This document shows, one piece after another, positions 5,323 to 62,170 of a DNA stretch of 63,313 bases. The notes below the pieces were generated by a model. That model did not search any database. It worked only from the letters and a program-made list of their open reading frames with translations, and had not been told where the DNA came from. Every line of letters starts with the position of its first letter. Position 1 is the first letter of the stretch. A program made the translations under genes and the position numbers. The DNA is from an uncultured Gammaproteobacteria bacterium (GTDB lineage Bacteria > Patescibacteriota > Patescibacteriia > Magasanikbacterales > GWA2-37-8), in assembly GCA_964536615.1 (NCBI GenBank), contig CAZHYG010000005.1, forward strand, positions 1 to 63,313. The letters are read 5' to 3'.

Positions 5323-6450
5323 TTAAGTGGCGGTCGTAAATAACGGCTCCTGTTTTAGATTGCGAGTAAATTCTTCGTATCGGTCGGCAATATATGTCTG
5401 TATACCTTGTTTAAAGTGTTGTGCGTCAAACTGTTTGGCATGTTGCCGTATTTTTGCGCTATCCCATTGTTGATGATTAAAACCAAGCAGGGTATCAAGT
5501 AGCGACTCCCAGGTCTGAGAGTGAAAAAAAATTCCAGTTTCGTTTGGTATGATGGTTTCGCTGGCGCCTCCATGCGCAAATGCAATTACCGGTCGTCCGC
5601 AGGCCATAGCTTCAACCGCGGTGATGCCAAAATCCTCCAGTTGCGGGTGGATAAAAGCGCGAGCACCAGATAGGATGCGGTATTTTTCTTCATCCGAAAT
5701 ATGGCCCAAGAATTCAATATTTGGTTTAGCCATCTTTTGTAAAGATGTTAGTTCTGGTCCGTCTCCAAAAATTTTTAATGGCCAGCGCAATCTGTTAAAT
5801 GCCTGTATCATTAAATCAAATCGTTTGTAGCCAACGAGTCGTCCCCCGCCTACAAAGTAGTCGCCGGGCTTTTCCAAAGAACAGGAGGTAAGTTCTACTG
5901 GAGGGTAAATAACAGTGCTTTCTCGGCGGTAATATTTTTGTATGCGCTGCGAAACAGTGCGTGAATTTGCAATAAAGTGGTCAACTCTATCAACACTCAT
6001 CTTGTCCCATATGCGAAGTCTGTGAATAAAAGAGGGAAGAACATATTTGATTAGACGGCTTTGTTTTAAATCTGTGATATAGGTGTGGTTGTCTGCCCAC
6101 AGAAAACGAGCGGGTGTATGGCAGTAGGAGATATGCAGTGTGTGCGGTCCGGTAATGATGCCCTTGGCGAACATGCTTGAAGTTGAAATAACTATATCAA
6201 AATCAGTTAAGTCGTGCTGTTCGGTAGCGAGCGGCATTAGAGGGAGATACCATTGGTAGGCTGTATTATGGAACGGCAGTTTTGCTAAAAAAGATTCATG
6301 AATATTATTGTGGTTGAGATATGGTATTTTTTCTTTATCATGAAACAAGACAAAAATAGGCGCTTCAGGCCACATGTGATGTAGTGTTTTTAATACGCGC
6401 TCCGCACCTCCGTCTTGCGCCAAATAATCATGTACTAACGCAATTTTCAT
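5323..6450 (-). CDS. glycosyltransferase family 4
   Basis: The ORF-track start at 6537 overlaps the upstream gene. The internal start MKIALVHDYLAQDGGAERV at 6450 gives the usual GT4 N-terminus and removes the overlap. C-terminal motif: EDFGITAVEAMACGRPVIAFAHGGASETI. Confidence 0.85.
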   Translation of the reverse strand: MKIALVHDYLAQDGGAERVLKTLHHMWPEAPIFVLFHDKEKIPYLNHNNIHESFLAKLPFHNTAYQWYLPLMPLATEQHDLTDFDIVISTSSMFAKGIITGPHTLHISYCHTPARFLWADNHTYITDLKQSRLIKYVLPSFIHRLRIWDKMSVDRVDHFIANSRTVSQRIQKYYRRESTVIYPPVELTSCSLEKPGDYFVGGGRLVGYKRFDLMIQAFNRLRWPLKIFGDGPELTSLQKMAKPNIEFLGHISDEEKYRILSGARAFIHPQLEDFGITAVEAMACGRPVIAFAHGGASETIIPNETGIFFHSQTWESLLDTLLGFNHQQWDSAKIRQHAKQFDAQHFKQGIQTYIADRYEEFTRNLKQEPLFTTAT

Positions 6451-14587: not shown

Positions 14588-16186
14588 ATGTCTAGAAAAA
14601 TTATTCTAGCTTTAACTCTGTGTGTTCTGATAATTCCTGGTGTGGCTGGAGCAGCTGTAGATGGGTCAAGTAAAATTCCGGCCCTTAATCCATTTTGTTG
14701 GCATAAAAAGGATTGTATAGAAGTTCGGGGTAAATATGTACTCGGTGACCCGTCAGCCGAAACCTTAGCTAAAGATGGTTTTGTGACTGGGCCAACCGCA
14801 GCGCCGTGTGTGGGTGGTGAAGGTGATGAAGAGTGGGGTCGTTGCTTGCCTGCAGGTGTATCCAAAACAGAAATTTCTTTTGGTGGAGAAAATCGCTTTG
14901 CCAATATAGGAGTGTTTATAGTTTCAATGTATAAATATTTGGTCGGTATTGCCAGTATTGTAGCGGTCATTATGATTATTTTAGCTGGTATACAGTGGGT
15001 TACTTCAGGAGGAAATAGCGAGACAATTAGCGGTGCTAAACACAGAATTTCGGGAGCTGTCATAGGTTTATTCATTGCCTACATGTCTTATTTTATTTTA
15101 AATACTGTTAATCCAGCTTTGGTTAATTTTCGGTTGCCGCAAGTGTGGCTGATTCGTCCTCAGCAGCTGATTCCAAAATTTTGCAAACAATTGGAAGGGG
15201 CTGAAAGCGGTAAGTTGAAATTTAGATTTTATTCCAGAGAAGACGATCAAACGTCGGCTGTGGATATTAAAAAGGCAGGCACAGAAACTATGCCATATGG
15301 ACAAAAGGATACGAATAATTTGGATATATTTAGTTGCGGCCGAAGGTTTTTGCCAGAAGACAGCGGCACTCAAACTTGTTTTGCAGACATCTGTTCTTCC
15401 GAGCGGGGAAATAGAAGCGGGTGTGTTGAAGGTGAGGATAAAAAACTCGCGTGCTATTACGGAGAGCTGTTTTTAAATCTAAGTATTAATACTGAATCAT
15501 TTAGCGCTGGTCAAGATACGCAGGATTATATTGCGGATTCAAGCGTGCCGGTGGTGAGTCAAGTATTTGGGGCATTTGTAAAAAAAGCTCTTAAAACTGA
15601 CTGGAAGTTTGATACCGAAGTTTTTAGAGGTGTGTGTAAGGTGGGGGATACGGTATATTTGGCAAATAAAGGAGGTTCCAAGAGTTGGGATGCAGATTCT
15701 GGCCGTAAATCGGTAGTGCGAAAAGTAAAACCCGACACGTATTATGAATATACAATTGGATATAGAGGCCTTGCAGATCCTGAAGGAGTTGGATGGAGTT
15801 GTGAAAAAGGCGGTGAGTTGGTAGGTTATTTATTGAGAATAGAAACAGACGCAGACCAGTCTGCTTGGGAAAAATTTGGCCCGAATTTAAAAACATTAAT
15901 TCCGGGTTATGGGCAGCTGGATTTTTTAAGCCGAGCGTTTAGTAGTGGGCCTCAGCCAAATTTGAGCGTTGGATATAACCGAAGCACAAAGCAGGCAGTT
16001 TTTGGTACTTTTTCTGATGATGTTAAAACGATTAATAACTACATACCTATAGAAGAGTTAAAAAAAGGCGCGTTGGTTTTGGATATTAATTTAACTTTAA
16101 GTAAGATAATCAGAATGAAAGGTAAAACAAGTCAGAACCCTGATGATTTTCCGGAAAATATAGATCCAGGTGTGTTGGCGCAATAA
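14588..16186 (+). CDS. Cys-rich secreted/membrane protein with TrbC/VirB2 (T4SS-pilin-like) two-TM module and ~340-aa C-terminal extension
   Basis: 532 aa with a signal peptide and the Cys-rich FCWHKKDC...CVGG...WGRC segment. A hydrophobic hairpin follows (GIASIVAVIMIILAGIQWVTSGGNSETISGAKHRISGAVIGLFIAYMSYFILNTVNPAL). It resembles the pilin-like family common in CPR genomes. The family call is from memory. Confidence 0.6.
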   Translation: MSRKIILALTLCVLIIPGVAGAAVDGSSKIPALNPFCWHKKDCIEVRGKYVLGDPSAETLAKDGFVTGPTAAPCVGGEGDEEWGRCLPAGVSKTEISFGGENRFANIGVFIVSMYKYLVGIASIVAVIMIILAGIQWVTSGGNSETISGAKHRISGAVIGLFIAYMSYFILNTVNPALVNFRLPQVWLIRPQQLIPKFCKQLEGAESGKLKFRFYSREDDQTSAVDIKKAGTETMPYGQKDTNNLDIFSCGRRFLPEDSGTQTCFADICSSERGNRSGCVEGEDKKLACYYGELFLNLSINTESFSAGQDTQDYIADSSVPVVSQVFGAFVKKALKTDWKFDTEVFRGVCKVGDTVYLANKGGSKSWDADSGRKSVVRKVKPDTYYEYTIGYRGLADPEGVGWSCEKGGELVGYLLRIETDADQSAWEKFGPNLKTLIPGYGQLDFLSRAFSSGPQPNLSVGYNRSTKQAVFGTFSDDVKTINNYIPIEELKKGALVLDINLTLSKIIRMKGKTSQNPDDFPENIDPGVLAQ

Positions 16187-30231: not shown

Positions 30232-33200
30232 ATGCGTCATGCATATATGCGCTTTGCGGCAATAGTTGCAGTTGTTGTCGCGGCGTTTGGTGTAAGTACT
30301 GCTGCCCGTGCAGCCGATACTACACCGCCAGTAACAAATGTTACTGTGCCTGTTGCCGGTTCGGCAGTGGCGGGAACTGCGCTTACTCTTACAGCTACCG
30401 CGTCTGATGCGGTAGGAGTAATTGGTGTTCAGTTTATTTTAGACGAAACAGTTAGTTTAGGAGCTGAAGATGTTGTTGCTCCATATACAATGACATGGGA
30501 TTCCACGTCTGTGTCAAATGGCTTGCATACAATTTCTGCCAAAACTCGTGATGCAGCTCGAAATTATGCGGTAAGTATTATTAATATTACTGTAGACAAT
30601 GATGTACCTGCAGCCGGAACTATTCTTATTAATGGCGGTGCGGCATTTACCAAAAGCACAGCCGTAACCTTAACCTTGTCTGCTACTGACGCAGTTACCT
30701 CAATTACGCAAATGCGTTTTTCAAATAATGGAACCAGCTTTAATGCTGCCGTTGCGTATAATACAACTGCATCTTGGACGCTCACAACTGGTGCGGGCAC
30801 TAAAACTGTATACGCACAGTTTAAAGATGCAGCTGGGAATTGGTCGCCTGTTTCAACTGCCACAATTATTCTTGATACAACCGCGCCAACTATTTCAGCA
30901 GTAGCTACAAGTAGTATTACCGGCACCAGTGTTACTATTACCTGGACCACAAATGAACCGGCAACTTCTCAAGCAAATTATGGTTTAACTACTAGTTACG
31001 GTACAACCACAACACTTGACACAACGCTCGTAACTTCTCACTCTATTACTTTAACCGGTCTTAATCCAAATACTACATATAATTTTCGAGTTCGTTCTAA
31101 AGATGGAGCTGGAAATGAGCGAGTAGGTACTAATTTTACTTTTAAAACCGCTTCAGCGACCGATACCACTGCTCCGTCAGTGCCAACCAACTTAACTGCT
31201 GCAGCCATGTCAAGTGCTCAAATAGATTTGTCATGGACTGCTTCTACGGATAATGTCGGTGTTGTAGGGTACGAAGTATTTCAGGATGGCGTGCAGGTTG
31301 GCACAACCGCAAATACATTCTTTAGTAATTTTGGCTTGAGTCCTGCAACTGCCTATACTTTTGCTGTGCGTGCTTATGATGCTGCTGGCAATCGTTCTGG
31401 TTTTTCTGCTTCAGCCATAACAAGTACAACACAGGTGCCAACTTCAACAGGGGCTGCTTCTTTAGGCGCACACACTTTAGCGTGGTTAGCTTGTGGTAGT
31501 AACGGTCCGATAACGACCTCTCCAATTACCACACAAAGTTCAAATAGCACTTTGCTTGCTTGGGTTGCACGAGGAAATATTAATGACTTTACTGCAAGTA
31601 CAATTCCTACTGACAATAAAGGTAATGTGCTTAGTATGATTGGAACGGTTCACGATTATACCCCATACTGGGCTAATTCAGGAGAAGCAATGTATCAAAT
31701 AGCTTCTGCCAATGGCGGAGCAAATCACATCTTTACAGCTCCACTACCAACAGCAGATGAAGTTACTATGGCTGTGGTAGAAGTGAAAAATGGCGGTGTT
31801 ATTGCGGATGCGCAGTGGGTTAAGACAGTCGGCAGCGCCCCAAATACCAGCGCCAATGTAACAGTAAATGGTCCGGCAACTCTAGTTGCTTTATGGGCCG
31901 GAGATGGTGCTGATGTAAATATGACAGCTGTGCCAGATAGTGGCTTTACTGTTATTGATTCACAACTTGTTAATACTACTTGTGCTATCCAAACCGTGGT
32001 GGCTGTAAAAGAAGTAACTGCGGCAGGTACATATAACGTAACTTGGACTGCTTCTCCAGTGCAAGGTGCTCATCTATGGCTCATAGCGGTGCAATCTGCA
32101 GCTCCAGACACCACAACTCCTTCAGTTCCCGCAAGTTTAACAGCCGTTCCAGTTTCCGATACCCAAATTAATCTTTCTTGGACTGCTTCCACAGATAATG
32201 TTGGAGTAACTGGCTACCAAGTTTTCCGCAACGGCAGCACTACTCCAGTTGCAACCCCATCAACAAATTCTTACAGTGATACTGGTCTTACTGCCTCTAC
32301 ACTGTATACGTATACAGTTAAAGCAGTAGATGCAGCCGGAAATGTTTCTGGTACATCTTCGCCTGTGTCAACTACAACTTTATCTGTACCGCCACCAGAC
32401 ACCACTCCGCCAGTAGTTGTTATTACAGCACCATTACAGGGCGCTGTATTATCATCAGGAACAACTGCCACAACACTTAGTGTGAGTACAAATGAAAGCT
32501 CTACGTGTGCATACGCAACTACTGCCGGTACTCCGTTTGGTTCTATGACAGTATTTGGTACCACCGGAGCTGTGGCTCACAGCACTACACTTTCTGGTTT
32601 AACAAATGGTAGTGCATATACCTATTATGTAAAATGCAGTGATGTGTCTGCAAATGTTTCCAGCGATACATCCACCTCATTTTCAGTGGCAAATCCTGGC
32701 AGCGGAGTATTGGCACAAACAAATATTCAAAGCCAGCTCTTAACTGAATCAACTAATGCTCCAATCTCAGTAACAGGCGCAACCTTTACACCTCCAAGCA
32801 ACTCGTTGTTGGTTGTAAGTACGCTTATGATGAGCAATCAAGCTAATGGTACCGAAACTGTATCGGGCGGAGGCTTGACCTGGACAAAGCGCATGTCTTT
32901 TGTGTCTCCAATACATCCATCTGGTTATGAATATACTCAAGAAATTTGGACTGCCCCAGTAAGTACAGCTTCTTCAATGGCGGTGACTGTAGACTCTACC
33001 GGTACTTCGGGAACAGATCCGACCCGTGTAAATTTACAAATTATTGCTTTCACTGGTTATGATACAGTAGCGCCAATCGGCGCCACTGCCAGTGGTTCCA
33101 GCTTAGGTTCTGGCACTGCAACCATTACCTTGTCTGCCGCACCTGCCACTAACAGTGTGGTGGTTGCTACCAAAGGCACTGCTGATGTTAATAACACCAA

Positions 33201-33396
33201 CAGTTTAGCTACTCCTGGTACAGGCTGGACAGAAGTATTTGACCAAGCAACTTCTTACGGATATGGTGATATGGAAACAGAAGTTCGTACCGGCAGTAAT
33301 TCTACAGCCGTAACTTGGAACGATATGGCAGATCCTGCAGGCGCATCTTTATGGGAAGCAAGCGCGCTTGCATTGGAAATAAAAGCCGCAAATTAA
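30232..33396 (+). CDS. large secreted surface protein with Ig-like and fibronectin type III repeats
   Basis: 1054 aa. The signal peptide is MRFAAIVAVVVAAFGVSTAARA/AD, with a likely start at 30247. Several T/S/A-rich beta-sandwich repeats are present. These include FN3-like units such as PSVPTNLTAAAMSSAQIDLSWTASTDNVGVVGYEVF and PSVPASLTAVPVSDTQINLSWTASTDNVGVTGYQVF. Confidence 0.8.
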   Translation: MRHAYMRFAAIVAVVVAAFGVSTAARAADTTPPVTNVTVPVAGSAVAGTALTLTATASDAVGVIGVQFILDETVSLGAEDVVAPYTMTWDSTSVSNGLHTISAKTRDAARNYAVSIINITVDNDVPAAGTILINGGAAFTKSTAVTLTLSATDAVTSITQMRFSNNGTSFNAAVAYNTTASWTLTTGAGTKTVYAQFKDAAGNWSPVSTATIILDTTAPTISAVATSSITGTSVTITWTTNEPATSQANYGLTTSYGTTTTLDTTLVTSHSITLTGLNPNTTYNFRVRSKDGAGNERVGTNFTFKTASATDTTAPSVPTNLTAAAMSSAQIDLSWTASTDNVGVVGYEVFQDGVQVGTTANTFFSNFGLSPATAYTFAVRAYDAAGNRSGFSASAITSTTQVPTSTGAASLGAHTLAWLACGSNGPITTSPITTQSSNSTLLAWVARGNINDFTASTIPTDNKGNVLSMIGTVHDYTPYWANSGEAMYQIASANGGANHIFTAPLPTADEVTMAVVEVKNGGVIADAQWVKTVGSAPNTSANVTVNGPATLVALWAGDGADVNMTAVPDSGFTVIDSQLVNTTCAIQTVVAVKEVTAAGTYNVTWTASPVQGAHLWLIAVQSAAPDTTTPSVPASLTAVPVSDTQINLSWTASTDNVGVTGYQVFRNGSTTPVATPSTNSYSDTGLTASTLYTYTVKAVDAAGNVSGTSSPVSTTTLSVPPPDTTPPVVVITAPLQGAVLSSGTTATTLSVSTNESSTCAYATTAGTPFGSMTVFGTTGAVAHSTTLSGLTNGSAYTYYVKCSDVSANVSSDTSTSFSVANPGSGVLAQTNIQSQLLTESTNAPISVTGATFTPPSNSLLVVSTLMMSNQANGTETVSGGGLTWTKRMSFVSPIHPSGYEYTQEIWTAPVSTASSMAVTVDSTGTSGTDPTRVNLQIIAFTGYDTVAPIGATASGSSLGSGTATITLSAAPATNSVVVATKGTADVNNTNSLATPGTGWTEVFDQATSYGYGDMETEVRTGSNSTAVTWNDMADPAGASLWEASALALEIKAAN

Positions 33397-51199: not shown

Positions 51200-52453
51200 A
51201 TGAAAATTAAGCAAGTAATAGCCAGAGAAATTTTGGATTCTCGCGGCAATCCTACAATTGAAGCAAAAATAGCGCTTGAAAACGGCCTTACAGCGGTAGC
51301 AAAAGTACCATCTGGAGCATCTACTGGCGCGCATGAGGCGTGGGAGTTGCGCGATGGTGGAAAACGATATGATGGCAAAGGTGTTCTCAAAGCCGTTAAG
51401 CATGTTAATGTTGATATTGCGCGTGCGGTGGTCGGTATGGAAGTATTTGATATAGAAAAAATTGACGCGGCCATGATTGCTTTAGATGGTACATCGAATA
51501 AATCAAAGTTAGGAGCAAATGCTATTTTAGCGGTTTCTTTGGCCGCGGTGCGTGCCGGTGCTGTGGCTGCAAGCAAGCCTCTGTATGCTTATATCAGACA
51601 GGCATACCGATTGCCGGAAAAAGAATATCGCTTGCCGGTATTGGGAATGAATATTATAAATGGCGGACGTCATGCTGATAATGGTCTTTCGGTGCAAGAA
51701 TTTATGATTATGCCAAAACATAAATTATTGCGTGAGCGCGTACGCATGGGCGCGCAAATTTTTCATGCTTTGGCAGGTTTGTTGCATGAAAAAGGTTTTG
51801 TAACCGGAGTAGGAGACGAAGGCGGTTTTGCGCCTGAGCTTCTTAATAATGAAAAAGCAATTCAATATATTATGCAAGCTATCAAGTTGGCTGGTTGGGA
51901 GCCTGGCAAGCATGTATTTTTGGCTTTAGATGTGGCGGCTTCAGAGTTTTATAGAAATAAAAAATATTATTTTTTAGGAAAAAAACAAGCTTGGAGCGCC
52001 AGCGACATGGTTAGTAATATTAAAAATTGGATTAAAAAATATCCGATTGTTTCAGTGGAAGATGGCTTGGCGGAGGATGATTGGTCCAATTGGGCAACAC
52101 TTACCAAAGAAGTTGGTAAAAACGTGGCGTTAGTCGGTGATGATTTATTTGTTACCAACCCTGATCGTATTGCAAAGGGGATTGCCGAACATGTAGCCAA
52201 TACCGTGCTTATCAAAATTAATCAAATTGGCACTGTTTCAGAGACAATTAAGGCTGTGCGATTGGCTCGGCAGCATAACTATAGTATATTTGTATCTCAT
52301 CGCAGCGGAGAAACGGCCGATACGTTTATCGCGGATCTGGCAGTGGCGGTAAATGCGGAATATATGAAAACTGGATCCCTGTCTCGTTCTGAGCGAATTG
52401 AAAAATATAATCGTTTAATGGAAATTGAGCAAGAATTAGAATCAGTTCTATGA
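51200..52453 (+). CDS. eno: enolase
   Basis: 417 aa. Motifs: REILDSRGNPT, SHRSGETED-like (SHRSGETAD) and IKINQIGT. Confidence 0.95.
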   Translation: MKIKQVIAREILDSRGNPTIEAKIALENGLTAVAKVPSGASTGAHEAWELRDGGKRYDGKGVLKAVKHVNVDIARAVVGMEVFDIEKIDAAMIALDGTSNKSKLGANAILAVSLAAVRAGAVAASKPLYAYIRQAYRLPEKEYRLPVLGMNIINGGRHADNGLSVQEFMIMPKHKLLRERVRMGAQIFHALAGLLHEKGFVTGVGDEGGFAPELLNNEKAIQYIMQAIKLAGWEPGKHVFLALDVAASEFYRNKKYYFLGKKQAWSASDMVSNIKNWIKKYPIVSVEDGLAEDDWSNWATLTKEVGKNVALVGDDLFVTNPDRIAKGIAEHVANTVLIKINQIGTVSETIKAVRLARQHNYSIFVSHRSGETADTFIADLAVAVNAEYMKTGSLSRSERIEKYNRLMEIEQELESVL

Positions 52454-54000
52454 AACATCAAAAACAAACCGTACTTGTTATAGTAGACGGATGGGGAATA
52501 GGGAGTCCAAAAGATCCAGGTAATCCGGTTACCGTTAAAACGGCTCCGCACTATTTTTCGTATCTGGAAAAATATCCTAACACGCAATTAAAAGCCAGTG
52601 GTGAAAATGTTGGGCTTTTTAAAGGGCAAGAAGGAAATAGTGAAGCCGGGCATCTTAATCTGGGAGCGGGCCGAATTGTAAAACAAGATGCTTTGTATAT
52701 CTCAGAAGCCATAAAAGATGGGTTATTTTTTAAGAATAATGCCTTTCATGAGGCAATGCATTATGTGAAAAAGCATGACTCCGCTGTTCATTTGATGGGT
52801 TTGCTTTCAAACCATAACAGTGCCCATTCTTGCCCTGAACATCTGTATGCGTTGCTGGAATTGTTGCATAGAGAAAGAATTAAAAAGGTCTATCTGCATT
52901 TATTTACGGACGGCCGTGATTCCAGCCAGTTTGAAGCGGCACGGCATTTTAAAAATTTAGAGAAGCATTTTTATGGCAATGAAAAAGTGGCAACAGTCAT
53001 GGGCAGATTTTATGCTATGGATAGAAATAAAAGCTGGGCTCGCATCAAACGAGCGTATGATGCGCTGGTGCTTGGTTCGGGCAACAAGGCCGTAAACGTG
53101 AGTGATGCATTGCGTGAATCATACAATAAAGGCGATAGCGATGAGTTTATTGAGCCTACAGTTATTGTGGAAAAAGGAAAACCTGTGGCCACGATTAAAG
53201 ATCACGATGCTATTTTCTTTTTTAATTTGCGTAGTGATCGGGCGCGTGAGTTGACTAAAGCATTTGTGCAGCCTAATTTTAAAGAGCTTAATCCCGGCGC
53301 GTTTACTCGTTCCCGATGCCCAAAACATATTCAGTTTGTAGCGTTAACAGATTTTGGTCCGGATTTGCCTGGTATTTTAACTGCATTTCCAAGTCGAGAT
53401 GTGCCAAACAGTTTAGTACAGGCGCTTTGTCCAAAAAAACAATTGTATATTGCCGAGTCTGAAAAATTTGCTCACATTACATATTTTTTAAACGGCGGTT
53501 ACGCGCAGCATTTTTGCGATGAAAATTGGGTAAAAATTTCTTCTGTGGAATTAAAAGATTATGCCAATAAGCCCGAAATGAGCGCTAAGCAAATTGCAGA
53601 TTATGCTATCGGTGCGATTAAATCAGAAAGCTACGAGTTTATTGCTTTAAATTTTGCCAATATGGATATGGTTGGCCACACCGGAAATTTTGCAGCCGGT
53701 CAAAAAGCAGTGAAGGCGGTAGATGCGGCTATAGACCGTATTGCTCAAGTTGTGTTAAAACATAAAGGCCAGCTTATCATTACGGCCGATCATGGAAACA
53801 TTGAAGAAATGATCAACGCAGAAACTGGTGAGCCTAACACAGAACATTCAACCAATCCAGTGCCGTTTATTTTGATTACCGATGATAAAAAGATTCCGCG
53901 ATCTTTGCGGCAAGGCAAGCTCGCCAATGTAGCTCCGACTATTCTTAAATTGATGGGTGTGGCTAAACCTGCTGAAATGACAGCCAAAAGTTTGGTTTAA
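52450..54000 (+). CDS. gpmI: 2,3-bisphosphoglycerate-independent phosphoglycerate mutase, copy 1
   Basis: 516 aa. Its ATG overlaps the eno stop (ATGA). Motifs: DGWG, GNSEAGHLNLGAGR (catalytic Ser), NMDMVGHTG and TADHGN. Confidence 0.9.
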   Translation: MKHQKQTVLVIVDGWGIGSPKDPGNPVTVKTAPHYFSYLEKYPNTQLKASGENVGLFKGQEGNSEAGHLNLGAGRIVKQDALYISEAIKDGLFFKNNAFHEAMHYVKKHDSAVHLMGLLSNHNSAHSCPEHLYALLELLHRERIKKVYLHLFTDGRDSSQFEAARHFKNLEKHFYGNEKVATVMGRFYAMDRNKSWARIKRAYDALVLGSGNKAVNVSDALRESYNKGDSDEFIEPTVIVEKGKPVATIKDHDAIFFFNLRSDRARELTKAFVQPNFKELNPGAFTRSRCPKHIQFVALTDFGPDLPGILTAFPSRDVPNSLVQALCPKKQLYIAESEKFAHITYFLNGGYAQHFCDENWVKISSVELKDYANKPEMSAKQIADYAIGAIKSESYEFIALNFANMDMVGHTGNFAAGQKAVKAVDAAIDRIAQVVLKHKGQLIITADHGNIEEMINAETGEPNTEHSTNPVPFILITDDKKIPRSLRQGKLANVAPTILKLMGVAKPAEMTAKSLV

Positions 54001-54027: not shown

Positions 54028-55605
54028 ATGCCAAAGCGACCGATAGTATTAATTATAATGGATGGATGGGGTGTTGCGCCGCATGTTGAAGGTAATGCGG
54101 TTTTTAGAGCTGAAACTCCAAATTTTAATAAATTTATTACCAATTATCCGGCCATGACATTGCATGCATCTGGTACGGAGGTTGGTCTTTTGTTTGGTGA
54201 AATGGGGAATTCCGAAGTAGGCCACCTAAATATTGGCGCAGGCAGAGTGTATTATCAAAGTTGTCCACGCATCAATCGCGCCATTGAAGACGGAAGTTTT
54301 TTTGAGAATGAAGCGCTGTGCGCCGCAATTGATCATGCCAAAAAAAATAACTCAAATTTACATTTGGTTGGGTTGGTGAGTTCGGGTAATGTCCACTCCA
54401 GCAACCAGCATTTGTACGCATTGCTTGATTTGTGCAAAAGAAAAAAGTTTACAAAAAATGTATTTATTCACGCGGTGCTTGATGGTCGTGATGCTTTGTA
54501 TAATTCCGGACGTGAATTTATTGTGGAAGCGGAAAAAAAGATTTCGGAATATAAAATCGGAGAAATTGTCACGTTGTCCGGGCGATATTTTGCCATGGAT
54601 AGAGATAACAGATGGGACAGGTGTGAAAAGGCATATCGAGCAATTGCCGAAGGCAAAGCAGATCGGTATGAGCAAGATCCGATTACGGCTATAGAAAAAT
54701 CGTATGAGCAAAAAATATATGATGAAGAATTTATTCCAACTGTCATAACACGCAAAGATAAACCAGTAGCCGTGGTGGGGGAAAAAGACGCAGTTATCTT
54801 TTTTAATTTTAGACCTGATCGCGCTCGACAATTGACCGAAGCATTTGCGCTGCCTTCATTTAATAAATTTGCCAAAACATATTCAAAAGATTTGTTTGTG
54901 GCCACGATGACGGAATATGAAAAAGATTTGCCTGTAGCCGTGGCGTTTGCGCCGGTGGTAGTGCATAATTGTTTGGCTGAAGTGATAAGCAAAGCAGGGT
55001 TAAAGCAAATACATATAGCTGAAACAGAAAAATATGCTCATGTTACATTTTTTTTAAACGGTACAGTTGAAGAACCTTTCCCCGGTGAAGATAGAATTTT
55101 AATTCCTTCACCGCATGTATCTAGTTATGATCAGCAGCCAGAAATGTCGGCTTTAGAAATTGCTAAAGAAGCGGGCAAGGCGATAGACAGCGGCAAGTAT
55201 GATCTTATAGTTCTCAATATTGCCAATGCGGACATGGTGGGGCACACCGGTAATCTTGAAGCCGGAATAAAAGCATGCAAAATTGTTGATAAATGCCTGG
55301 GTGATATTGCGGATCATGCTTTGTCTCAAAATGGTGTAGTGGTAATTACAGCGGATCACGGCAATGCCGAAGAAATGACCAACTTGCAAACTGGGGATAT
55401 TGATAAGGAGCATTCCACCAATCCGGTACCTTTAATTATTATCGGTAAAGAATTTTTAGGTCAAGCCGGTCCTTCAGGAGACCCTCCGGAAGGCGACCTA
55501 AGTTTGTTGCAGCCTGCGGGGATTTTGGCAGATGTTGCCCCAACTGTTCTTTCGTTGTTGGGAGTGTCTCAGCCGGAAGATATGACAGGTGCAACACTTA
55601 TCTAG
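54028..55605 (+). CDS. gpmI: 2,3-bisphosphoglycerate-independent phosphoglycerate mutase, copy 2
   Basis: 525 aa. Motifs: DGWG, GNSEVGHLNIGAGR, NADMVGHTG and TADHGN. Confidence 0.9.
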   Translation: MPKRPIVLIIMDGWGVAPHVEGNAVFRAETPNFNKFITNYPAMTLHASGTEVGLLFGEMGNSEVGHLNIGAGRVYYQSCPRINRAIEDGSFFENEALCAAIDHAKKNNSNLHLVGLVSSGNVHSSNQHLYALLDLCKRKKFTKNVFIHAVLDGRDALYNSGREFIVEAEKKISEYKIGEIVTLSGRYFAMDRDNRWDRCEKAYRAIAEGKADRYEQDPITAIEKSYEQKIYDEEFIPTVITRKDKPVAVVGEKDAVIFFNFRPDRARQLTEAFALPSFNKFAKTYSKDLFVATMTEYEKDLPVAVAFAPVVVHNCLAEVISKAGLKQIHIAETEKYAHVTFFLNGTVEEPFPGEDRILIPSPHVSSYDQQPEMSALEIAKEAGKAIDSGKYDLIVLNIANADMVGHTGNLEAGIKACKIVDKCLGDIADHALSQNGVVVITADHGNAEEMTNLQTGDIDKEHSTNPVPLIIIGKEFLGQAGPSGDPPEGDLSLLQPAGILADVAPTVLSLLGVSQPEDMTGATLI

Positions 55606-56763: not shown

Positions 56764-57225
56764 ATGTCGACCAATTCGTTTGGCGATGTCTGCCAAGCGG
56801 TGATGCGCTTGTTTCCGCCTACTCTGGAGATCGACCCTTCTGTCTGTGATTTGGGGTTGGTTCCAGACTTGGACAAGCTGCATGCCTACCAGTTTGCGCG
56901 TCCAAGGCTTGACGGCACTGTCCCTGAGGTTGTCGAAAACGACTTCTGGTACATGGCCTTGCAGGGCGGCTATGACCGGTATGGGCTGGGGTTGTTGAAT
57001 CGGCTATGGAATGTGCCGTATATGGAATGGCCGGCATCGTTGATGTCAGTGGGTGACACGCTCGTGTTTGGTGGTGCCAAGTTGCGGCGCAAGGGCATGT
57101 TGTTTGTGGCCACTCTTGCGATTCAGTATGATTTGCGTACCGAGAGGTTGGTGCCTGTGGTTGGTGCCAAGTGGACAGGGTCTCCGTACTGGCCGTATCA
57201 GGCTGGGCTAGTGTGTGAAGCGTAG
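56764..57225 (+). CDS. GC-rich orphan protein (153 aa), unknown function
   Basis: The start was moved to ATG at 56764, which lies 6 nt after a perfect AGGAGG. The composition is GC-rich and no family motif was recognised. Confidence 0.6.
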   Translation: MSTNSFGDVCQAVMRLFPPTLEIDPSVCDLGLVPDLDKLHAYQFARPRLDGTVPEVVENDFWYMALQGGYDRYGLGLLNRLWNVPYMEWPASLMSVGDTLVFGGAKLRRKGMLFVATLAIQYDLRTERLVPVVGAKWTGSPYWPYQAGLVCEA

Positions 57226-57260
57226 TCGCCACGTTGCGGCGCGCTTCGGAAACGTGTGGT

Positions 57261-57300
57261 GGCCGCAGGCTTGGGAGAAGCCGGCGGCCTTTGTTGTTTT
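57261..57300 (+). terminator. rho-independent terminator
   Basis: Stem GGCCGCAGGCTT / AAGCCGGCGGCC (one mismatch), then TTTGTTGTTTT. Confidence 0.6.
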
Positions 57301-57303
57301 AAA

Positions 57304-57342
57304 TAAAAAATACCGCGTTTGCTATAAAATGCACGCGGTATT
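57304..57342 (-). terminator. rho-independent terminator of the DHH gene
   Basis: On the minus strand: stem ATACCGCG / CGCGGTAT followed by TTTTTT. Confidence 0.55.
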
Positions 57343-58487
57343 TAGATGGTTTGCAATAATTTTTTTATTTTTTCCGTAACTTCGATTTCAACCTCTTTAA
57401 TGGATTTGCCGGATATAGAAAATGATGCGGATCGTTTGCTGCCCTCGGGTTTTAATCCTTGAAGCAGTTCTTTTGCGTCGTGCTGCTTGTCTGTGCAAAG
57501 TAATCCGTGCACCGCATGTTCTCCTTTTGTATCTTCGTGCAGTAAAAGCACAATACGCGCTTCAGGAGAGTTATGCATCAGCTCATCTGTAAGATCTTTT
57601 AATTCATCTTCGCTGGCGCCGGCTCTGGCAAAATCTTCTCTGGTAATAGTAGTCCATACAAAACCGGTTTTAGGATCGTTTTCCATGTGGGTAAGTGCAA
57701 TACCCCAAATGCGCATAGATGAGATGCTTTTTGTTCTGTATAAATTTTTGACAATTTTTTCTCTGTCTGCCCCCAAATTCATAAGGGTGCTGGCGGTGTT
57801 GAGTGTATCCGGACTTACATTGGCAGTTTTAAAACTTTGAGTTTGGCTAATCATGCCGGTAAGCAGATAGTTGGCCATTTCTGCGTCAATTTCTTGCGGA
57901 TAAAGACGCGATAAAGTTTTAAAAACAATCTCGGAAATTGATGTAGCGCTTAATTGTACAACATTGATCTGCCCGAAATGTTCATTGCCTGGGTTGTGGT
58001 CAAAATTTACCAGAGGAACTTTGTAAAACAAATCGGTGTTGTGCAAGAAAATATTTCCTAATGATTCCAAATCCTGAGCGTTAATTGCAATAATCAAATC
58101 ATATTTTAAACCAGAGTGCGCCGTGCGCAATTCATTTTTGGTGATGATGCCTTGTTTGGGAGTGATGTAAATGGAAAGCCAATTATCTTTAATGTCGTAG
58201 CTCAGGCTATCTACTTTTACATTACTCACATCAACTTTGAGAATAAATTTTTGCACGTTTGATATAATGGGTTGAATTTCTTCCAGGCCTTTTAAAAAAC
58301 GAAGCGGTTTTGGAATAGAAAAATTTTCCGCAATAATATCGGCCTGTTTATGATGCCTTTCCAGGATTTTTTTCCAAGCCATGGCAGCGCAAATTGCATC
58401 TGTGTTATGGTTGGCATTTGTAACAAGTAATATATGCTGGCTGGATTCAATTATGTGTCGGAGTTGTTCCGTTTCGTTAAGCGACAT
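57342..58487 (-). CDS. DHH/DHHA1-family phosphoesterase-like protein (NrnA-like) with substituted catalytic motifs
   Basis: 381 aa with NrnA-like length and layout. However, motif I reads NANHNTDA, the DHH motif reads FDHNPGN, and no GGGH motif is visible in the DHHA1 part. Confidence 0.75.
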   Translation of the reverse strand: MSLNETEQLRHIIESSQHILLVTNANHNTDAICAAMAWKKILERHHKQADIIAENFSIPKPLRFLKGLEEIQPIISNVQKFILKVDVSNVKVDSLSYDIKDNWLSIYITPKQGIITKNELRTAHSGLKYDLIIAINAQDLESLGNIFLHNTDLFYKVPLVNFDHNPGNEHFGQINVVQLSATSISEIVFKTLSRLYPQEIDAEMANYLLTGMISQTQSFKTANVSPDTLNTASTLMNLGADREKIVKNLYRTKSISSMRIWGIALTHMENDPKTGFVWTTITREDFARAGASEDELKDLTDELMHNSPEARIVLLLHEDTKGEHAVHGLLCTDKQHDAKELLQGLKPEGSKRSASFSISGKSIKEVEIEVTEKIKKLLQTI

Positions 58488-58619: not shown

Positions 58620-58705
58620 ATGTATTTTCTGACCGCTCGCGTTGTGTATGCGCAATATTTTGTGTATACAAAGCGAAAAACGAGCGGTCGGTCAAGGGGG
58701 TGGCG

Positions 58706-58912
58706 TCATCGGCGTGTGGGCCGGTGCGAGCGTGCCCCGCTGCAGATTGGCGCAGCCGCGTTGATTGGCAGCTGAAGCGCCGGCAGAATCCGGTCTTCGT
58801 TCCGGAAGTTCAGTTGGTAGGCGTTTTTTGGCCCTGGTAGCCAGAGCACGGCAATGGCCGCTATAGTAGCGGACACAATGAGCGCAAGCGCCCACTGCAA
58901 TGGCGTTTTCAT
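58706..58912 (-). CDS. GC-rich small membrane-anchored protein (68 aa)
   Basis: The SD AAGGAG lies 8 nt upstream of the ATG. It has an N-terminal TM (LQWALALIVSATIAAIAVLWL), a GC-rich composition and an ATTGACAAAA -35 context upstream. No homology recognised. Confidence 0.5.
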   Translation of the reverse strand: MKTPLQWALALIVSATIAAIAVLWLPGPKNAYQLNFRNEDRILPALQLPINAAAPICSGARSHRPTRR

Positions 58913-59020
58913 GGCAGTTGCTCCTTCTCGGGTTGATATGGTACTGGTACCATGCCTCGGATAGTTTTGTCAATGGGGTTTGGTTTGATTTTTTTATTTA
59001 ACTTTAGTACAATAAGAGCC

Positions 59021-62000
59021 ATGAAAAAAGAACTTGCCAAGGCATACGAACCTTCAATTTACGAAGATGCCATATACAAAAAATGGGAAGAGTCAGGGTT
59101 GTTTAACCCTGATATTTGCGTAGCACAACATATTGCCGAACCGGAGGCGCCATATTTTTCTGTGGTACTTCCTCCGCCAAATGTAACAGGCACATTGCAT
59201 ATGGGTCATGCGGTTATGCTTGCTGTACAAGATGCCATGGTGCGGTATCATCGCATGAAAGGCGAGCGTACATTATGGGTGCCTGGTACCGATCATGCCG
59301 CCATTGCTACGCAAGCAAAAGTTGAAAAATTAGTCATGGAAAAAGAAAAAAAGACTAAATATGATTTAGGACGATCTGAATTTTTAAAGCGGGTAGAACA
59401 GTTTGCGCAAGAAAGCCACGACACTATTGTTAATCAGGCGCGAAAAATGGGCGCATCGCTTGATTGGAGCCGTGAAGCATATACATTAGACGAGCAGCGC
59501 AATTTAGCTGTACGCACCGTGTTTAAAAAAATGTATGATGACGGCCTTATCTATCGCGGCTATCGCGTAATCAACTGGTCTGTACAAGGCCAGTCTACTA
59601 TCAGCGATGATGAAATTGTGCATGTTGAACGCCCGGCCAAGTTATATTATTTTAAATATTCCAAAGATTTTCCAATTACCATTGCCACCACCAGGCCCGA
59701 AACAAAATTAGGCGATACGGCTGTGGCGGTTAATCCAAATGACGAGCGGTATAAAAAATATATCGGACAAGAATTTACGGTTGATGTCGGCGCTCTTGAA
59801 CCTCTTAAAATAAAAATTATCGGCGAAGATACGGTCGATCCTGCTTTTGGTACAGGCGCGCTCGGCGTTACTCCCGCTCATAGTGCCGCAGACTTTGAGA
59901 TGTATCAAAAACAAAAAGCGGCCGGAAACGAGATTGGCTTTATTCAGGTAATTGGCGAAGATGGAAGGATGACCGCATCTGCAGGCAAACAATACGCTGG
60001 TCTCTCGGCTTTGGAAGCAAGGAAAAAATTTGTGGCATTTTTGGTAGATAATAACTTGTTGGAAAAAGAAGAAGATATTGTTCAAAATGTTGGTACATCC
60101 GACAGGTTTGGCGATGTGGTGGAGCCGTTGCCAAAAACACAGTGGTTTATTGATGTAAACAAGCCGGTTGCAGCTCGCGGCGGCAAAACTCTTAAAGAGT
60201 TAATGCAAGAAGCGGTGCAAAGCAAACAAATTGCAATCGTGCCGGATCGTTTTGAAAAAACATATTTCCACTGGATAGATAATTTGCGCGACTGGTGTAT
60301 TAGTCGTCAGATTTGGTTTGGACACCAGATACCTGTGTGGTACAAAGATGAGAAAATATATTGCGGTGTGCAAGCGCCTGCAGGCGACGGTTGGGTGCAA
60401 GATCCAGACACGCTAGACACATGGTTTTCTTCGGGTTTATGGACATTTTCTACATTAGGATGGCCGCTTACTACAGTTGGTTTTGTGCGTCATGGTGAAG
60501 CAGAAAATAATGTGTCTTTAACTGTAAGCAACGACGTAGATAAATATCCTCTTACTGAAAAAGGCAGAAAGCAGATTGCTGATTTAGCAAAAGAGTTGCG
60601 CGGCCAAGGATATGAACGCATTATCGCGTCGCCAATTTTGCGTACCAAACAAACCGCAGAAATTTTATCAGATGCATTGGGTCTTCCGCTAGAATTTGAT
60701 GATCGTATTAAAGAAGTTGGATTTGGAGAATATAATCATCATGCAGAAATTGAAATAGAAGAACAGCGAGCTCGCAATGGCTGGATGGTTAAGACTCCGT
60801 TTAATATGGAATCATATGCATCGTTGCGTCAGCGTACGCATGCGTGTATGGCCGATGTAACGGCACGCTATGCGGGCCAAAAAATACTTATGGTTTCTCA
60901 CGGTGATACGCTGGCGGTGTTAAAACAGTTTGGCACCGATGTCTATACCAACGAGTTGGGTGTGTTGCAAAAACGCGGCACCTGCGACATGCGGCAGTTT
61001 GATACCAGCGGACGGCAGGCAAGTGATTTGGCAGCGTTTCATCCAACATCGGTTATGGAAACCGGCTATGATATTTTGTTTTTCTGGGTAGCGCGCATGA
61101 TACTTATGACCACCTATACGCTGGGAGAGGTTCCATTTAAGACAGTGTATTTGCATGGCTTGGTGCGCGATGAACAGGGAAGAAAAATGAGCAAATCATT
61201 GGGTAATATTATTGATCCGCTAGACATGATTGCAAAATATGGCACTGACGCTACCAGATTGTCGCTGCTTTTAGGCAATACGCCAGGCAATGATATGAAA
61301 TTATCCGAAGAAAAAATTGCCGGCTTTAGAAATTTTACCAATAAATTGTGGAACATTTCTCGGTTTATGCTGCTTAATATTGAAGAGCCGAACATGAATG
61401 TTCAAGAGCCAAAAGCAAAAACGTTGGCAGACACATGGATATTGGAAAAATTACAATCTATTGTTGTTAAAACTTCCGAGCATATTGAAAAGTTTAATTT
61501 TTCTATGGCTGGCGAAGAGTTACGCGATTTTACTTGGGGAGATCTGGCGGACTGGTATTTGGAAATTGCCAAAGTAGAGGGGGGTAAATCAGAGATTTTA
61601 AATTATATTTTAAATACAATATTAAAACTCTGGCATCCATACATGCCGTTTGTAACCGAAACTATTTGGCAGGAAGTGTATGGGCACGAGCGCATGATGA
61701 TGGTAGAGAAGTGGCCAATTGCAGTGACGCATAAAAAAACTGAAGGCGATGATTTTGAGTTGATACGTTCAATTATTACCGGCATACGTTCTTTGCGCGC
61801 GGAAAATAAGATAGAGCCAGCCAAAAAAATTGGCGCGCGTTTAAATATTGGAGATAGAAAAAAATTAATACAAAAAAATGAAGAGGCTATAAAGGCCCTG
61901 GCTCGGTTGGAAAAATTAGAGTTTGCAGATTCGGGAGCCGAGATCGCTTTGGATTTGGCCGGAGCAGTAGATGTGGAAAAAGAAAAACCAAGGCTGGAAA

Positions 62001-62170
62001 AAGAAATAGCCGAACTTGTCAAATATATTTCTGGATTAGAAAATAAATTGTCTAATCAAGAATTTGTAAATAATGCGCCAAAGCCGGTGGTAGAAAAAGA
62101 ACAGGCCAAGTTAAGTGAAGCAAAAATAAAAGTAGAAAAATTACAACAGCAACTTGAGAATTTAAAATAA
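59021..62170 (+). CDS. valS: valyl-tRNA synthetase carrying an internal histidine-phosphatase domain
   Basis: The start was moved to MKKELAKAYEP at 59021. It has HIGH (LHMGHA), the CP1 editing domain (TTRPETKLGDTAV), KMSKS and a C-terminal coiled coil. A foreign domain of about 188 codons lies at 60467-61030. Confidence 0.95.
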   Translation: MKKELAKAYEPSIYEDAIYKKWEESGLFNPDICVAQHIAEPEAPYFSVVLPPPNVTGTLHMGHAVMLAVQDAMVRYHRMKGERTLWVPGTDHAAIATQAKVEKLVMEKEKKTKYDLGRSEFLKRVEQFAQESHDTIVNQARKMGASLDWSREAYTLDEQRNLAVRTVFKKMYDDGLIYRGYRVINWSVQGQSTISDDEIVHVERPAKLYYFKYSKDFPITIATTRPETKLGDTAVAVNPNDERYKKYIGQEFTVDVGALEPLKIKIIGEDTVDPAFGTGALGVTPAHSAADFEMYQKQKAAGNEIGFIQVIGEDGRMTASAGKQYAGLSALEARKKFVAFLVDNNLLEKEEDIVQNVGTSDRFGDVVEPLPKTQWFIDVNKPVAARGGKTLKELMQEAVQSKQIAIVPDRFEKTYFHWIDNLRDWCISRQIWFGHQIPVWYKDEKIYCGVQAPAGDGWVQDPDTLDTWFSSGLWTFSTLGWPLTTVGFVRHGEAENNVSLTVSNDVDKYPLTEKGRKQIADLAKELRGQGYERIIASPILRTKQTAEILSDALGLPLEFDDRIKEVGFGEYNHHAEIEIEEQRARNGWMVKTPFNMESYASLRQRTHACMADVTARYAGQKILMVSHGDTLAVLKQFGTDVYTNELGVLQKRGTCDMRQFDTSGRQASDLAAFHPTSVMETGYDILFFWVARMILMTTYTLGEVPFKTVYLHGLVRDEQGRKMSKSLGNIIDPLDMIAKYGTDATRLSLLLGNTPGNDMKLSEEKIAGFRNFTNKLWNISRFMLLNIEEPNMNVQEPKAKTLADTWILEKLQSIVVKTSEHIEKFNFSMAGEELRDFTWGDLADWYLEIAKVEGGKSEILNYILNTILKLWHPYMPFVTETIWQEVYGHERMMMVEKWPIAVTHKKTEGDDFELIRSIITGIRSLRAENKIEPAKKIGARLNIGDRKKLIQKNEEAIKALARLEKLEFADSGAEIALDLAGAVDVEKEKPRLEKEIAELVKYISGLENKLSNQEFVNNAPKPVVEKEQAKLSEAKIKVEKLQQQLENLK

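Follow-up and report, generated by a model that had tools for sequence, protein, structure and literature searches.

Aminoacyl-tRNA synthetases are among the most conserved enzymes. Where bacterial synthetases have accessory domains, these usually serve RNA binding or editing, and an unrelated metabolic enzyme within the Rossmann core is not the usual case. The canonical valyl-tRNA synthetase (ValRS), represented by the T. thermophilus enzyme (1GAX), has a complete Rossmann fold with its HIGH and KMSKS signatures, a CP1 editing domain, CP2 and CP3, an anticodon-binding domain and a C-terminal coiled coil. Here, we analyzed a ValRS gene (valS) of an uncultured bacterium of the Patescibacteria, on a 63,313-nt stretch of DNA (positions 1–63,313 of GenBank CAZHYG010000005.1, assembly GCA_964536615.1), the whole of which is referred to as the window. 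The product of this gene has all of the canonical elements, but between the sequences STLGWP and FHPTSV, where the canonical enzyme has a loop of 4–10 residues, the window ValRS has ≈181 extra residues, and these form a histidine phosphatase (His_Phos) domain.

The domain itself resembles PhoE/YhfR (1H2E), PspA (4IJ5) and CobC (6E4B) in its fold (Foldseek E-values of 1e-11 to 1e-12), its R-H-R-E-H set of catalytic residues and its size of ≈180–200 aa. However, these proteins are only 20–29% identical to the insert and are free proteins, whereas the insert is spliced into a synthetase. The Rv2228c-type RNase H/CobC-like acid phosphatase (NF005567) also has a His_Phos domain fused to a nucleic-acid enzyme, and the insert matched the phosphatase half of that model with 79 bits, below the cut-off of 326; that fusion is end-to-end and involves another partner, in contrast to the internal insertion seen here. 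Isoleucyl-tRNA synthetases (IleRS) with an embedded GNAT domain, which have a curated model of their own (NCBIfam NF040702, ileS_w_GNAT), are likewise a precedent for the addition of an enzymatic domain to a class Ia synthetase, but the fold and chemistry are different, and the model coordinates suggest another position in the protein.

No description of a ValRS or IleRS with a His_Phos domain was found in the literature searched, including a 2026 survey of domain insertions (PMC13114784), and no curated model for His_Phos-containing synthetases was present among the NCBIfam matches to these proteins. According to the initial annotation of the window, no described ValRS with this insertion was known. 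This agrees with the literature searched, but many ValRS from metagenomes share the architecture, and a JGI record was automatically named “valyl-tRNA synthetase/broad specificity phosphatase PhoE”. ValRS with a His_Phos domain is not unique to the window, and its IleRS counterpart is abundant in public genomes and apparently undescribed. The explanation that we consider probable is that the gene encodes a working ValRS carrying an autonomous small-molecule phosphomonoesterase, which belongs to a synthetase-linked lineage of Patescibacteria and serves as an accessory exchanged by recombination.

The phosphatase domain inside ValRS

The insert occupies residues 483–672, at a position denoted site A. 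The 188-aa segment alone matched PF00300 with 120.4 bits and an E-value of 9.8e-35 (the Pfam gathering score is 21.7), bearing out the claim of the initial annotation that ValRS contains a complete, in-frame histidine phosphatase domain with both catalytic histidines (H491 and H627). The RHGE, SPxxRxxQTA-segment and SHG motifs were located where that annotation had placed them. The span given there for the insert (60467–61030) had the correct start, but the end fell short, since FHPTSV begins at 61037 and the insert sequence quoted in support ends at 61036. The features of the insert are listed below.

60467..61036 (+), histidine phosphatase insert (site A, aa 483–672), PF00300, between STLGWP and FHPTSV
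60488..60496 (+), RHG motif with Arg490, the nucleophile His491 and Gly492, invariant in 18/18 site-A inserts and in standalone homologues
60488..60499 (+), RHGE motif, located in the sequence
60629..60646 (+), SPILRT motif, located in the sequence
60641..60643 (+), second phosphate-binding Arg (R59 of the insert, aa 541, in SPILRT), invariant
60713..60715 (+), putative proton-donor Glu (E83 of the insert, aa 565, in KEVGFG), invariant
60896..60907 (+), SHGD motif, located in the sequence
60899..60901 (+), second catalytic His (H145 of the insert, aa 627, in SHGD), invariant

In an alignment of the DNA with three insert-less loci, the net insertion was a clean, in-frame block of 543 nt. Insert-less relatives read STLG(W/Y)P-xxxx-DLxxFHPTSV in this region, with a loop of ≈9 residues, and the trailing DLAAF of the insert aligns to their DLKNY loop. 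The domain was inserted into a loop that connects a helix to a strand in the second Rossmann half. Very short linkers hold it there, and the insert begins only 3 residues past the helix that starts at the substrate-binding DTWFSS motif.

A small His_Phos domain is present in full in the insert, up to and including the last strand, and residues R8, H9, G10, R59, E83 and H145 (insert numbering) were invariant in a comparison with 20 standalone phosphatases. Among site-A inserts, the motifs F.RHGEAEN, SP..R, EVG.G and V.HGD were invariant; a conserved C-terminal segment (KQFGT…Q.R.T.D.R.F) is specific to the site-A clade, unlike PhoE, PspA and CobC. An AlphaFold2 (AF2) model of the insert alone had a predicted local distance difference test score (pLDDT) of 80.8 and a predicted template modeling score (pTM) of 0.79. 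The top Foldseek matches to this model were PspA (4ij5 and 4ij6), PhoE (1h2e) and CobC (6e4b), each with a probability of 1.00, together with GpgP and TIGAR, and all of these top matches are small-molecule phosphatases.

The insert is under purifying selection. In a comparison of the window with a related locus (L001), the ratio of nonsynonymous to synonymous substitution rates (dN/dS) was 0.043 in the insert vs. 0.105 in the ValRS core. Its GC content (0.443) and third-position GC content (0.367) are close to those of the rest of valS (0.416 and 0.382, respectively), and its codon-usage distance of 0.094 is within the range of chunks of the host gene (maximum 0.101), in agreement with the host-like base composition noted in the initial annotation. 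Because the catalytic residues are invariant in all 18 site-A inserts and dN/dS is below that of the host, we argue that catalysis has been retained. Judged by its sequence, the insert is a PF00300 branch-1 histidine phosphatase domain with a complete catalytic set, for which turnover is predicted, and it is apparently an active phosphatase.

The label “PGM-like” (for phosphoglycerate mutase) that the domain had received was right with respect to the superfamily, but not with respect to PGM: the models for cofactor-dependent PGM (dPGM), CobC, PspA and SixA all scored below their cut-offs, and the domain is better called phosphatase-like. The scores were 81.9 vs. a cut-off of 162.9 for CobC, 54.8 vs. 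350 for PspA, 35.2 vs. 74.5 for SixA and 67.8 vs. 261 for GpmB, and the insert reached the cut-off of no NCBIfam equivalog model. The best NCBIfam match was the archaeal dPGM model NF038349 (≈110 bits), which might suggest that the insert is the cell's dPGM, fused to ValRS. However, this score (109.8) is far under the cut-off of 225, pgm_1 (TIGR01258) reached 16.5 vs. 81.7, and the other dPGM models gave ≤18 bits. Moreover, the domain is only ≈185 aa long and has the motif SHGD, not the HGN that is typical of dPGM mutases. Two tandem paralogous genes for cofactor-independent PGM (iPGM_N + Metalloenzyme; 516 and 525 aa) are found at 52450–54000 and 54028–55605 (+), ≈3.4 kb upstream of valS. Since these two genes lie nearby and all dPGM models were below cut-off, a glycolytic PGM role is unlikely and was rejected, and we regard the identification of the insert as the cell's dPGM as highly improbable. 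(The duplication of iPGM is in itself unusual for a small genome of the candidate phyla radiation (CPR).)

The patchy distribution of the domain, described below, could also be taken as a sign of an assembly chimera, a pseudogene or a self-splicing, intein-like mobile element. An intein was considered and rejected: the insert starts with LTTV and ends with SDLAA before F, and it has neither an N-terminal Cys or Ser nor a His-Asn pair preceding Cys, Ser or Thr. No Hint, LAGLIDADG or endonuclease domain was detected in the insert with Pfam. The edges of the indel were clean in the DNA alignment, in which no search for repeats across the junctions was made. Identical junctions were present in independently assembled sequences from JGI, ENA, Logan and NCBI, with contigs as long as 754 kb for some of the proteins, and in two GTDB genomes (L001 and L003). 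Together with the absence of stops or frameshifts, the low dN/dS and the host-like composition, these shared junctions uphold the view in the initial annotation that the gene is not a pseudogene. Considering the shared junctions, the purifying selection, the intact residues and the confident models, artefact, pseudogene and intein were all rejected, and the probability that we leave to them is practically negligible.

The host enzyme is also complete. A single, uninterrupted open reading frame (ORF) extends from 58952 to 62170 (+), and, as had been stated in the initial annotation, the ORF listing showed no stop or frameshift. Translation probably starts with the Met at 59021 (MKKELAKAYEP), since homologues start at the same Met (MKELPKAYEP), and the product then has 1049 aa. 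Pfam detected tRNA-synt_1 (5.5e-124), Anticodon_1 and Val_tRNA-synt_C in addition to His_Phos_1 (PF00300, 2.9e-33, aa 488–634). The protein matched the valS equivalog NF004349 with 968.5 bits (cut-off 704), in a match split in two by the insert, and TIGR00422 with 885.7 bits (cut-off 612.1). The following features were assigned, with invariance determined from an alignment of the window protein with 75 other ValRS.

59021..62170 (+), valS coding sequence, 1049 aa plus stop; an in-frame upstream ATG at 58952 would give 1072 aa
59198..59209 (+), HIGH signature (HMGH, aa 60–63); H60, G62 and H63 invariant across 76 ValRS
59687..59899 (+), CP1 editing motifs TTRPET (aa 223–228) and GTGALGVTPAHSAADFE (aa 277–293); T223, R225, P226, E227, T228, H287 and D291 invariant
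60284..60406 (+), CP2-3 linker LRDWCISRQIWFG and short CP3 hairpin (site B), without a His_Phos insert in the window
60407..60433 (+), DTLDTWFSS motif in the second Rossmann half; D463–S470 invariant; directly upstream of the helix ending at the insertion point
61184..61198 (+), KMSKS signature (aa 722–726); K722, M723, S724 and K725 invariant
61430..61828 (+), anticodon-binding domain (aa 804–936), Pfam Anticodon_1 4.8e-34
61970..62167 (+), C-terminal coiled-coil tRNA-binding arm (aa 984–1049), Pfam Val_tRNA-synt_C 1.5e-16; long helices at 985–1048 in the AF2 model

The HIGH, KMSKS and CP1 editing residues of the window ValRS all fall in invariant columns of this alignment, and the GTG..H..D editing motif is present in CP1, so that these elements are intact, as had been claimed. 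The AF2 model of the whole protein had a pLDDT of 85 and a pTM of 0.77, with values of 81–91 for the blocks at the junctions. The best PDB match to the model in Foldseek was the T. thermophilus ValRS–tRNA complex (1gax_A, TMt 0.81). From these sequence features, the valS product appears to be a working valyl-tRNA synthetase, and it is probably the housekeeping ValRS of the cell.

Distribution, origin and exchange of the domain

The 120 closest ValRS are all from Candidatus Magasanikbacteria or other Patescibacteria where the source names them. PF00300 was present in 27 of the 120, at site A in 18 and at a different position, site B, in 9. Site B lies ≈40 residues upstream of site A, right after IPVWYK, and takes several forms, one of which is inside a CxxC…CxxC zinc knuckle. 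Structures of IleRS define a CP2-3 linker (“WCISRQ..WG”) followed by CP3, a subdomain of variable topology (PMC7955072, PMC7191050). Since the segment after the CP2-3 linker is CP3 by this nomenclature, site B falls within CP3. Of the two ValRS forms, that at site A, which interrupts the second Rossmann half itself and not CP3, is the less usual. A different insertion of ≈80–97 aa (LGGPHQAKHFN…WIEQN…) is found at site B/CP3 in some ValRS (P0031, P0041 and P0155), so that CP3 is a hot spot for insertions in general. P0031 and P0155 additionally carry a site-A phosphatase.

A word-indexed search with only the insert as query gave 21 weak standalone matches and missed all ValRS relatives. When 1.84 billion representative proteins were searched exhaustively with phmmer, 12,898 matches at E < 1e-3 were obtained, the best 150 of which were classified. 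These comprised 53 domains embedded in IleRS (10 with two copies), 7 embedded in ValRS (one with four copies and one with two), 25 standalone tandem di-domain proteins and 65 standalone proteins of ≈180–220 aa. All 60 domains among these best 150 that were part of a larger recognized protein were thus in IleRS or ValRS, and no other host was seen; the IleRS identity was confirmed with NCBIfam for eight putative IleRS proteins. Tandem amplification within synthetases was observed in the ValRS P0142 (four His_Phos domains) and P0248 (two), and in the IleRS P0145, P0152, P0153 and P0159 (two each; 1379–1468 aa). The standalone di-His_Phos proteins, of ≈420 aa, form a family.

A neighbor-joining tree was calculated from 230 domains and a 163-column alignment, in which the deep branching is only indicative. 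All site-A inserts formed one tight clade, and their nearest relatives, P0146 and P0151, were more distant. The sister of this clade was dominated by IleRS-embedded domains and included domains of the type of the standalone protein P0121 (see below), while the site-B domains of ValRS fell in two to three other clades. From these clades, the site-A insert has a single origin, and ValRS acquired a His_Phos domain at least three times.

In a tree of the ValRS core (847 columns, with the insert removed), insert-bearing ValRS were scattered among insert-less ones, and each had an insert-less neighbor very close to it. Core identities between the two kinds reached 92.9% for P0028 (site A) and P0114, 93.8% for P0081 (site B) and P0090 and 91.7% for P0088 (site B) and P0058; the window ValRS itself (P0001) was 86.0% identical in its core to the insert-less P0007. 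Site-A hosts were monophyletic in 0/100 bootstraps, mixed sister pairs with and without the insert had 99–100% support, and one clade with 100% support contained site-A, site-B and insert-less ValRS. Insert and core identities were weakly correlated (r = 0.49), with some pairs reversing the expected order. Presence and absence thus flip among near-identical valS genes, which indicates that the insert is dispensable for ValRS over short evolutionary distances. It is an accessory.

The valS genes themselves are visibly mosaic. P0006 is similar to the window ValRS except in the CP1 segment (core columns ≈140–340), which is near-identical to that of the insert-less P0037. Since CP1 matches one lineage and the remainder another, intragenic recombination does occur in this essential synthetase gene. 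Between P0028 and P0114, the flanks were identical and the only differences were in the CP3 hairpin and the insert. The presence/absence flips between close valS genes and the mosaic genes make recombination the likely mover of the insert, which is probably added and removed by homologous recombination through the highly conserved flanks. Near-identical valS alleles with and without the insert constitute a natural experiment on the entry and exit of a domain in an essential gene by recombination.

IleRS counterparts and the argS–ileS–recO locus

Scanning of GTDB species representatives with one His_Phos-containing IleRS protein yielded 80 IleRS loci, almost all from Patescibacteria (Nealson-, Yanofsky-, Harrison-, Ryan-, Giovannoni- and Falkowbacteria, among others), including one complete genome (CP179889.1). 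The His_Phos domain was present in 60 of the 80, in CP3. These IleRS domains resemble the window insert in belonging to the same phosphatase lineage (its sister in the domain tree), in their class Ia host, in their intact catalytic residues and in coming from the same super-phylum. They differ in the IleRS host, in the CP3 insertion point, in being often tandem and in their wider spread among the sampled species representatives.

The closest standalone homologue of the insert, P0121, belongs to a family comprising over 360 clusters whose names refer to Moranbacteria, Minisyncoccota or Patescibacteria. In five of five genomes examined, the gene was part of a conserved same-strand block in the order argS, a conserved small basic/TM ORF of 46–52 aa, the phosphatase gene, one or more variable genes, an insert-less ileS and recO. 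The genes between the phosphatase and ileS encode NYN, hemerythrin, AOX, HIT or sigma/NrdD proteins, and NYN nuclease, HIT and NUDIX genes are among the variable neighbors of the standalone loci. In one locus (L115), the phosphatase gene ends 29 nt ahead of the insert-less ileS. The same neighborhood surrounds the embedded form: argS was upstream, often directly abutting, in 45 of the 60 loci with a His_Phos-containing IleRS, and recO was downstream in 42 of them, and their flanks contained a standalone phosphatase in 0/60. A standalone phosphatase was found at the argS–ileS–recO locus in 6/6 cases with an insert-less ileS and beside none of the 60 embedded ones. At this locus, the phosphatase is therefore encoded by its own gene next to ileS or within ileS itself. 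For valS, no standalone His_Phos gene was found within 6 kb in 21 related loci, nor anywhere in the window.

The link between this phosphatase lineage and class I synthetases is supported by two independent lines of genomic evidence, fusion and conserved neighborhood. By its domain sequence, the insert groups with phosphatases that are embedded in IleRS or ValRS or linked to argS and ileS, and not with generic His_Phos proteins, although this clustering is only indicative.

The small ORF between argS and the standalone phosphatase gene was located at 5825–5980 in L181, ≈5840–5995 in L186, 5856–5996 in L187, 5845–5994 in L188 and 5839–5997 in L189. Its product has a basic N-terminus (…PRKYR.KYK.K..WDEEL…) and one hydrophobic helix (…LFF..A.G.D.Y..FH), and may be a partner protein or a leader.

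Possible roles and genomic surroundings

In the mechanism that we propose, ValRS would carry a second, independent catalytic module of ≈185 aa, a histidine phosphomonoesterase of the PhoE/PspA/CobC type. The module would belong to a Patescibacteria-specific phosphatase lineage that is genetically tied to class I synthetases and occurs in four arrangements: standalone in the argS–small membrane ORF–phosphatase–ileS–recO block; in CP3 of IleRS in the same block; in CP3 of ValRS; and in the Rossmann loop of ValRS, where the window insert belongs to the single-origin clade. The domain most likely hydrolyzes a small-molecule phosphomonoester, with its turnover coupled to aminoacylation, and the leading candidates for the substrate would be nucleotide-type by-products or a phosphorylated metabolite, with the domain remaining outside the Val-AMP or Val-tRNA chemistry itself. 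The insert comes and goes between valS alleles that are otherwise almost the same, and homologous recombination via the conserved flanks is the most likely route. Direct binding of the tRNA backbone is not favored, the acidity of the site-A domains being weak evidence against it, and a tRNA end or a protein is a possible substrate. The significance of the system lies in the repeated recruitment of a catalytically intact phosphatase by ValRS (at least three times) and also by IleRS, or else its retention beside argS and ileS, in a huge, uncultured, genome-reduced bacterial radiation. This pattern points to a novel phosphate-ester chemistry that would be coupled to tRNA charging in Patescibacteria.

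Several observations weigh against this reading. The catalytic pentad R-H-R-E-H was intact in 18/18 site-A ValRS inserts, 41/43 single IleRS inserts, 18/20 tandem IleRS inserts and 5/9 site-B ValRS inserts, but the embedded domains were sampled by their similarity to an intact query, which inflates these fractions. Four of the nine site-B inserts lack the R of RHG or the second His: P0061 and P0086 have VHS instead of RHG, and P0067 and P0085 have ASSG instead of SHG. Such losses mean that catalysis is not required in every lineage. In addition, the genomes sampled for the conserved argS–phosphatase–ileS order come from a single related group (Moranbacteria/Minisyncoccota, with phosphatases 56–63% identical), and shared ancestry may partly account for it.

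The site-B inserts that have lost catalytic residues leave room for a binding-only role in those lineages. Their retention is consistent with a non-catalytic sensor or regulatory domain, in which a phosphometabolite bound in the His_Phos pocket would tune aminoacylation allosterically via the helix leading to the DTWFSS motif, and the start of the insert so close to that helix fits such a scheme. For the window insert, this explanation is very doubtful, as the site-A catalytic residues are without exception invariant and the insert is under stronger constraint than its host (lower dN/dS).

The ready gain and loss of the insert can be read in another way, in which an ordinary metabolic enzyme, such as a phosphoserine or broad sugar-phosphate phosphatase, has hitch-hiked in a permissive surface loop of a constitutive, essential gene with no link to aminoacylation. 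The nearest structures are indeed those of metabolic phosphatases (PspA, PhoE, CobC, GpgP and TIGAR), the flips in near-identical valS genes show that ValRS can do without the domain, and the same family also occurs as standalone and tandem di-domain proteins. Class I synthetases are permissive hosts for insertions, according to the survey mentioned above (PMC13114784). However, a hitch-hiker would not be expected to show such extreme host specificity (60/60 embedded domains among the best 150 relatives in IleRS or ValRS), at least three independent insertions into ValRS plus insertion into IleRS, and, where it is a separate gene, a persistent position between argS and ileS. We consider an uncoupled metabolic enzyme unlikely.

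The exclusive association with tRNA-handling enzymes, by contrast, would suit a repair or immunity module that protects translation in an epibiotic CPR cell. Such a module would dephosphorylate the 3' end of tRNA after toxSAS-type (pyro)phosphorylation or nuclease damage, or remove a phosphate placed on the synthetase by a toxin kinase. HipA and HipT phosphorylate the KMSKS loops of class I synthetases, and the His_Phos fold includes protein phosphatases such as SixA, PGAM5 and Sts-1. Rapid gain and loss and tandem amplification to four copies are typical of conflict systems, the very short linkers imply a fixed geometry on the synthetase, and NYN nuclease, HIT and NUDIX genes are among the variable neighbors of the standalone loci. 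Conversely, the acidity of the site-A inserts (mean net charge −4.9) sets them apart from RNA-binding modules, the nearest structural matches are enzymes that act on small molecules, and the involvement of only two or three of the twenty synthetase types would be odd for general tRNA repair. In this form, such a module is distinctly unlikely. A broader version, in which the embedded phosphatases would be a built-in layer of translation repair and immunity that strips phosphate or pyrophosphate from the tRNA 3' end or the synthetase, or destroys a phosphorylated inhibitor mimicking the aminoacyl-adenylate, with alleles exchanged by recombination under conflict-driven selection, is also unlikely, but if true it would represent a previously unrecognized layer of aminoacyl-tRNA synthetase biology.

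The surroundings of valS include two GC-rich patches (0.58 vs. 0.42 in the window), one at 57000–57300 and the other at 58650–58950, just upstream of valS. The latter overlaps a 68-aa minus-strand ORF (58706–58912) with a hydrophobic N-terminus. A search of the GC-rich valS upstream region against Rfam for structured RNA gave only sub-threshold noise. A DHH-family (NrnA-like) protein is encoded divergently, directly upstream of valS, at 57342–58487 (−), and its link to the insert is probably coincidental.

Many of the related third-party annotation (TPA) loci from metagenome-assembled genomes (L001–L003, L006, L010, L012–L015, L097 and L100) are titled “uncultured Gammaproteobacteria” or “uncultured Candidatus Saccharibacteria”. 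These organism labels look unreliable, because the ValRS and IleRS of the loci most resemble records from Magasanikbacteria or Parcubacteria. Elsewhere, the window encodes a DUF4012 protein at 332–2896 (−), a protein with a T4SS-pilin-like domain at 14588–16186 (+) and a large fn3/Big_7 surface protein at 30232–33396 (+), which we take to resemble the cell-surface and epibiont gene sets of CPR bacteria.

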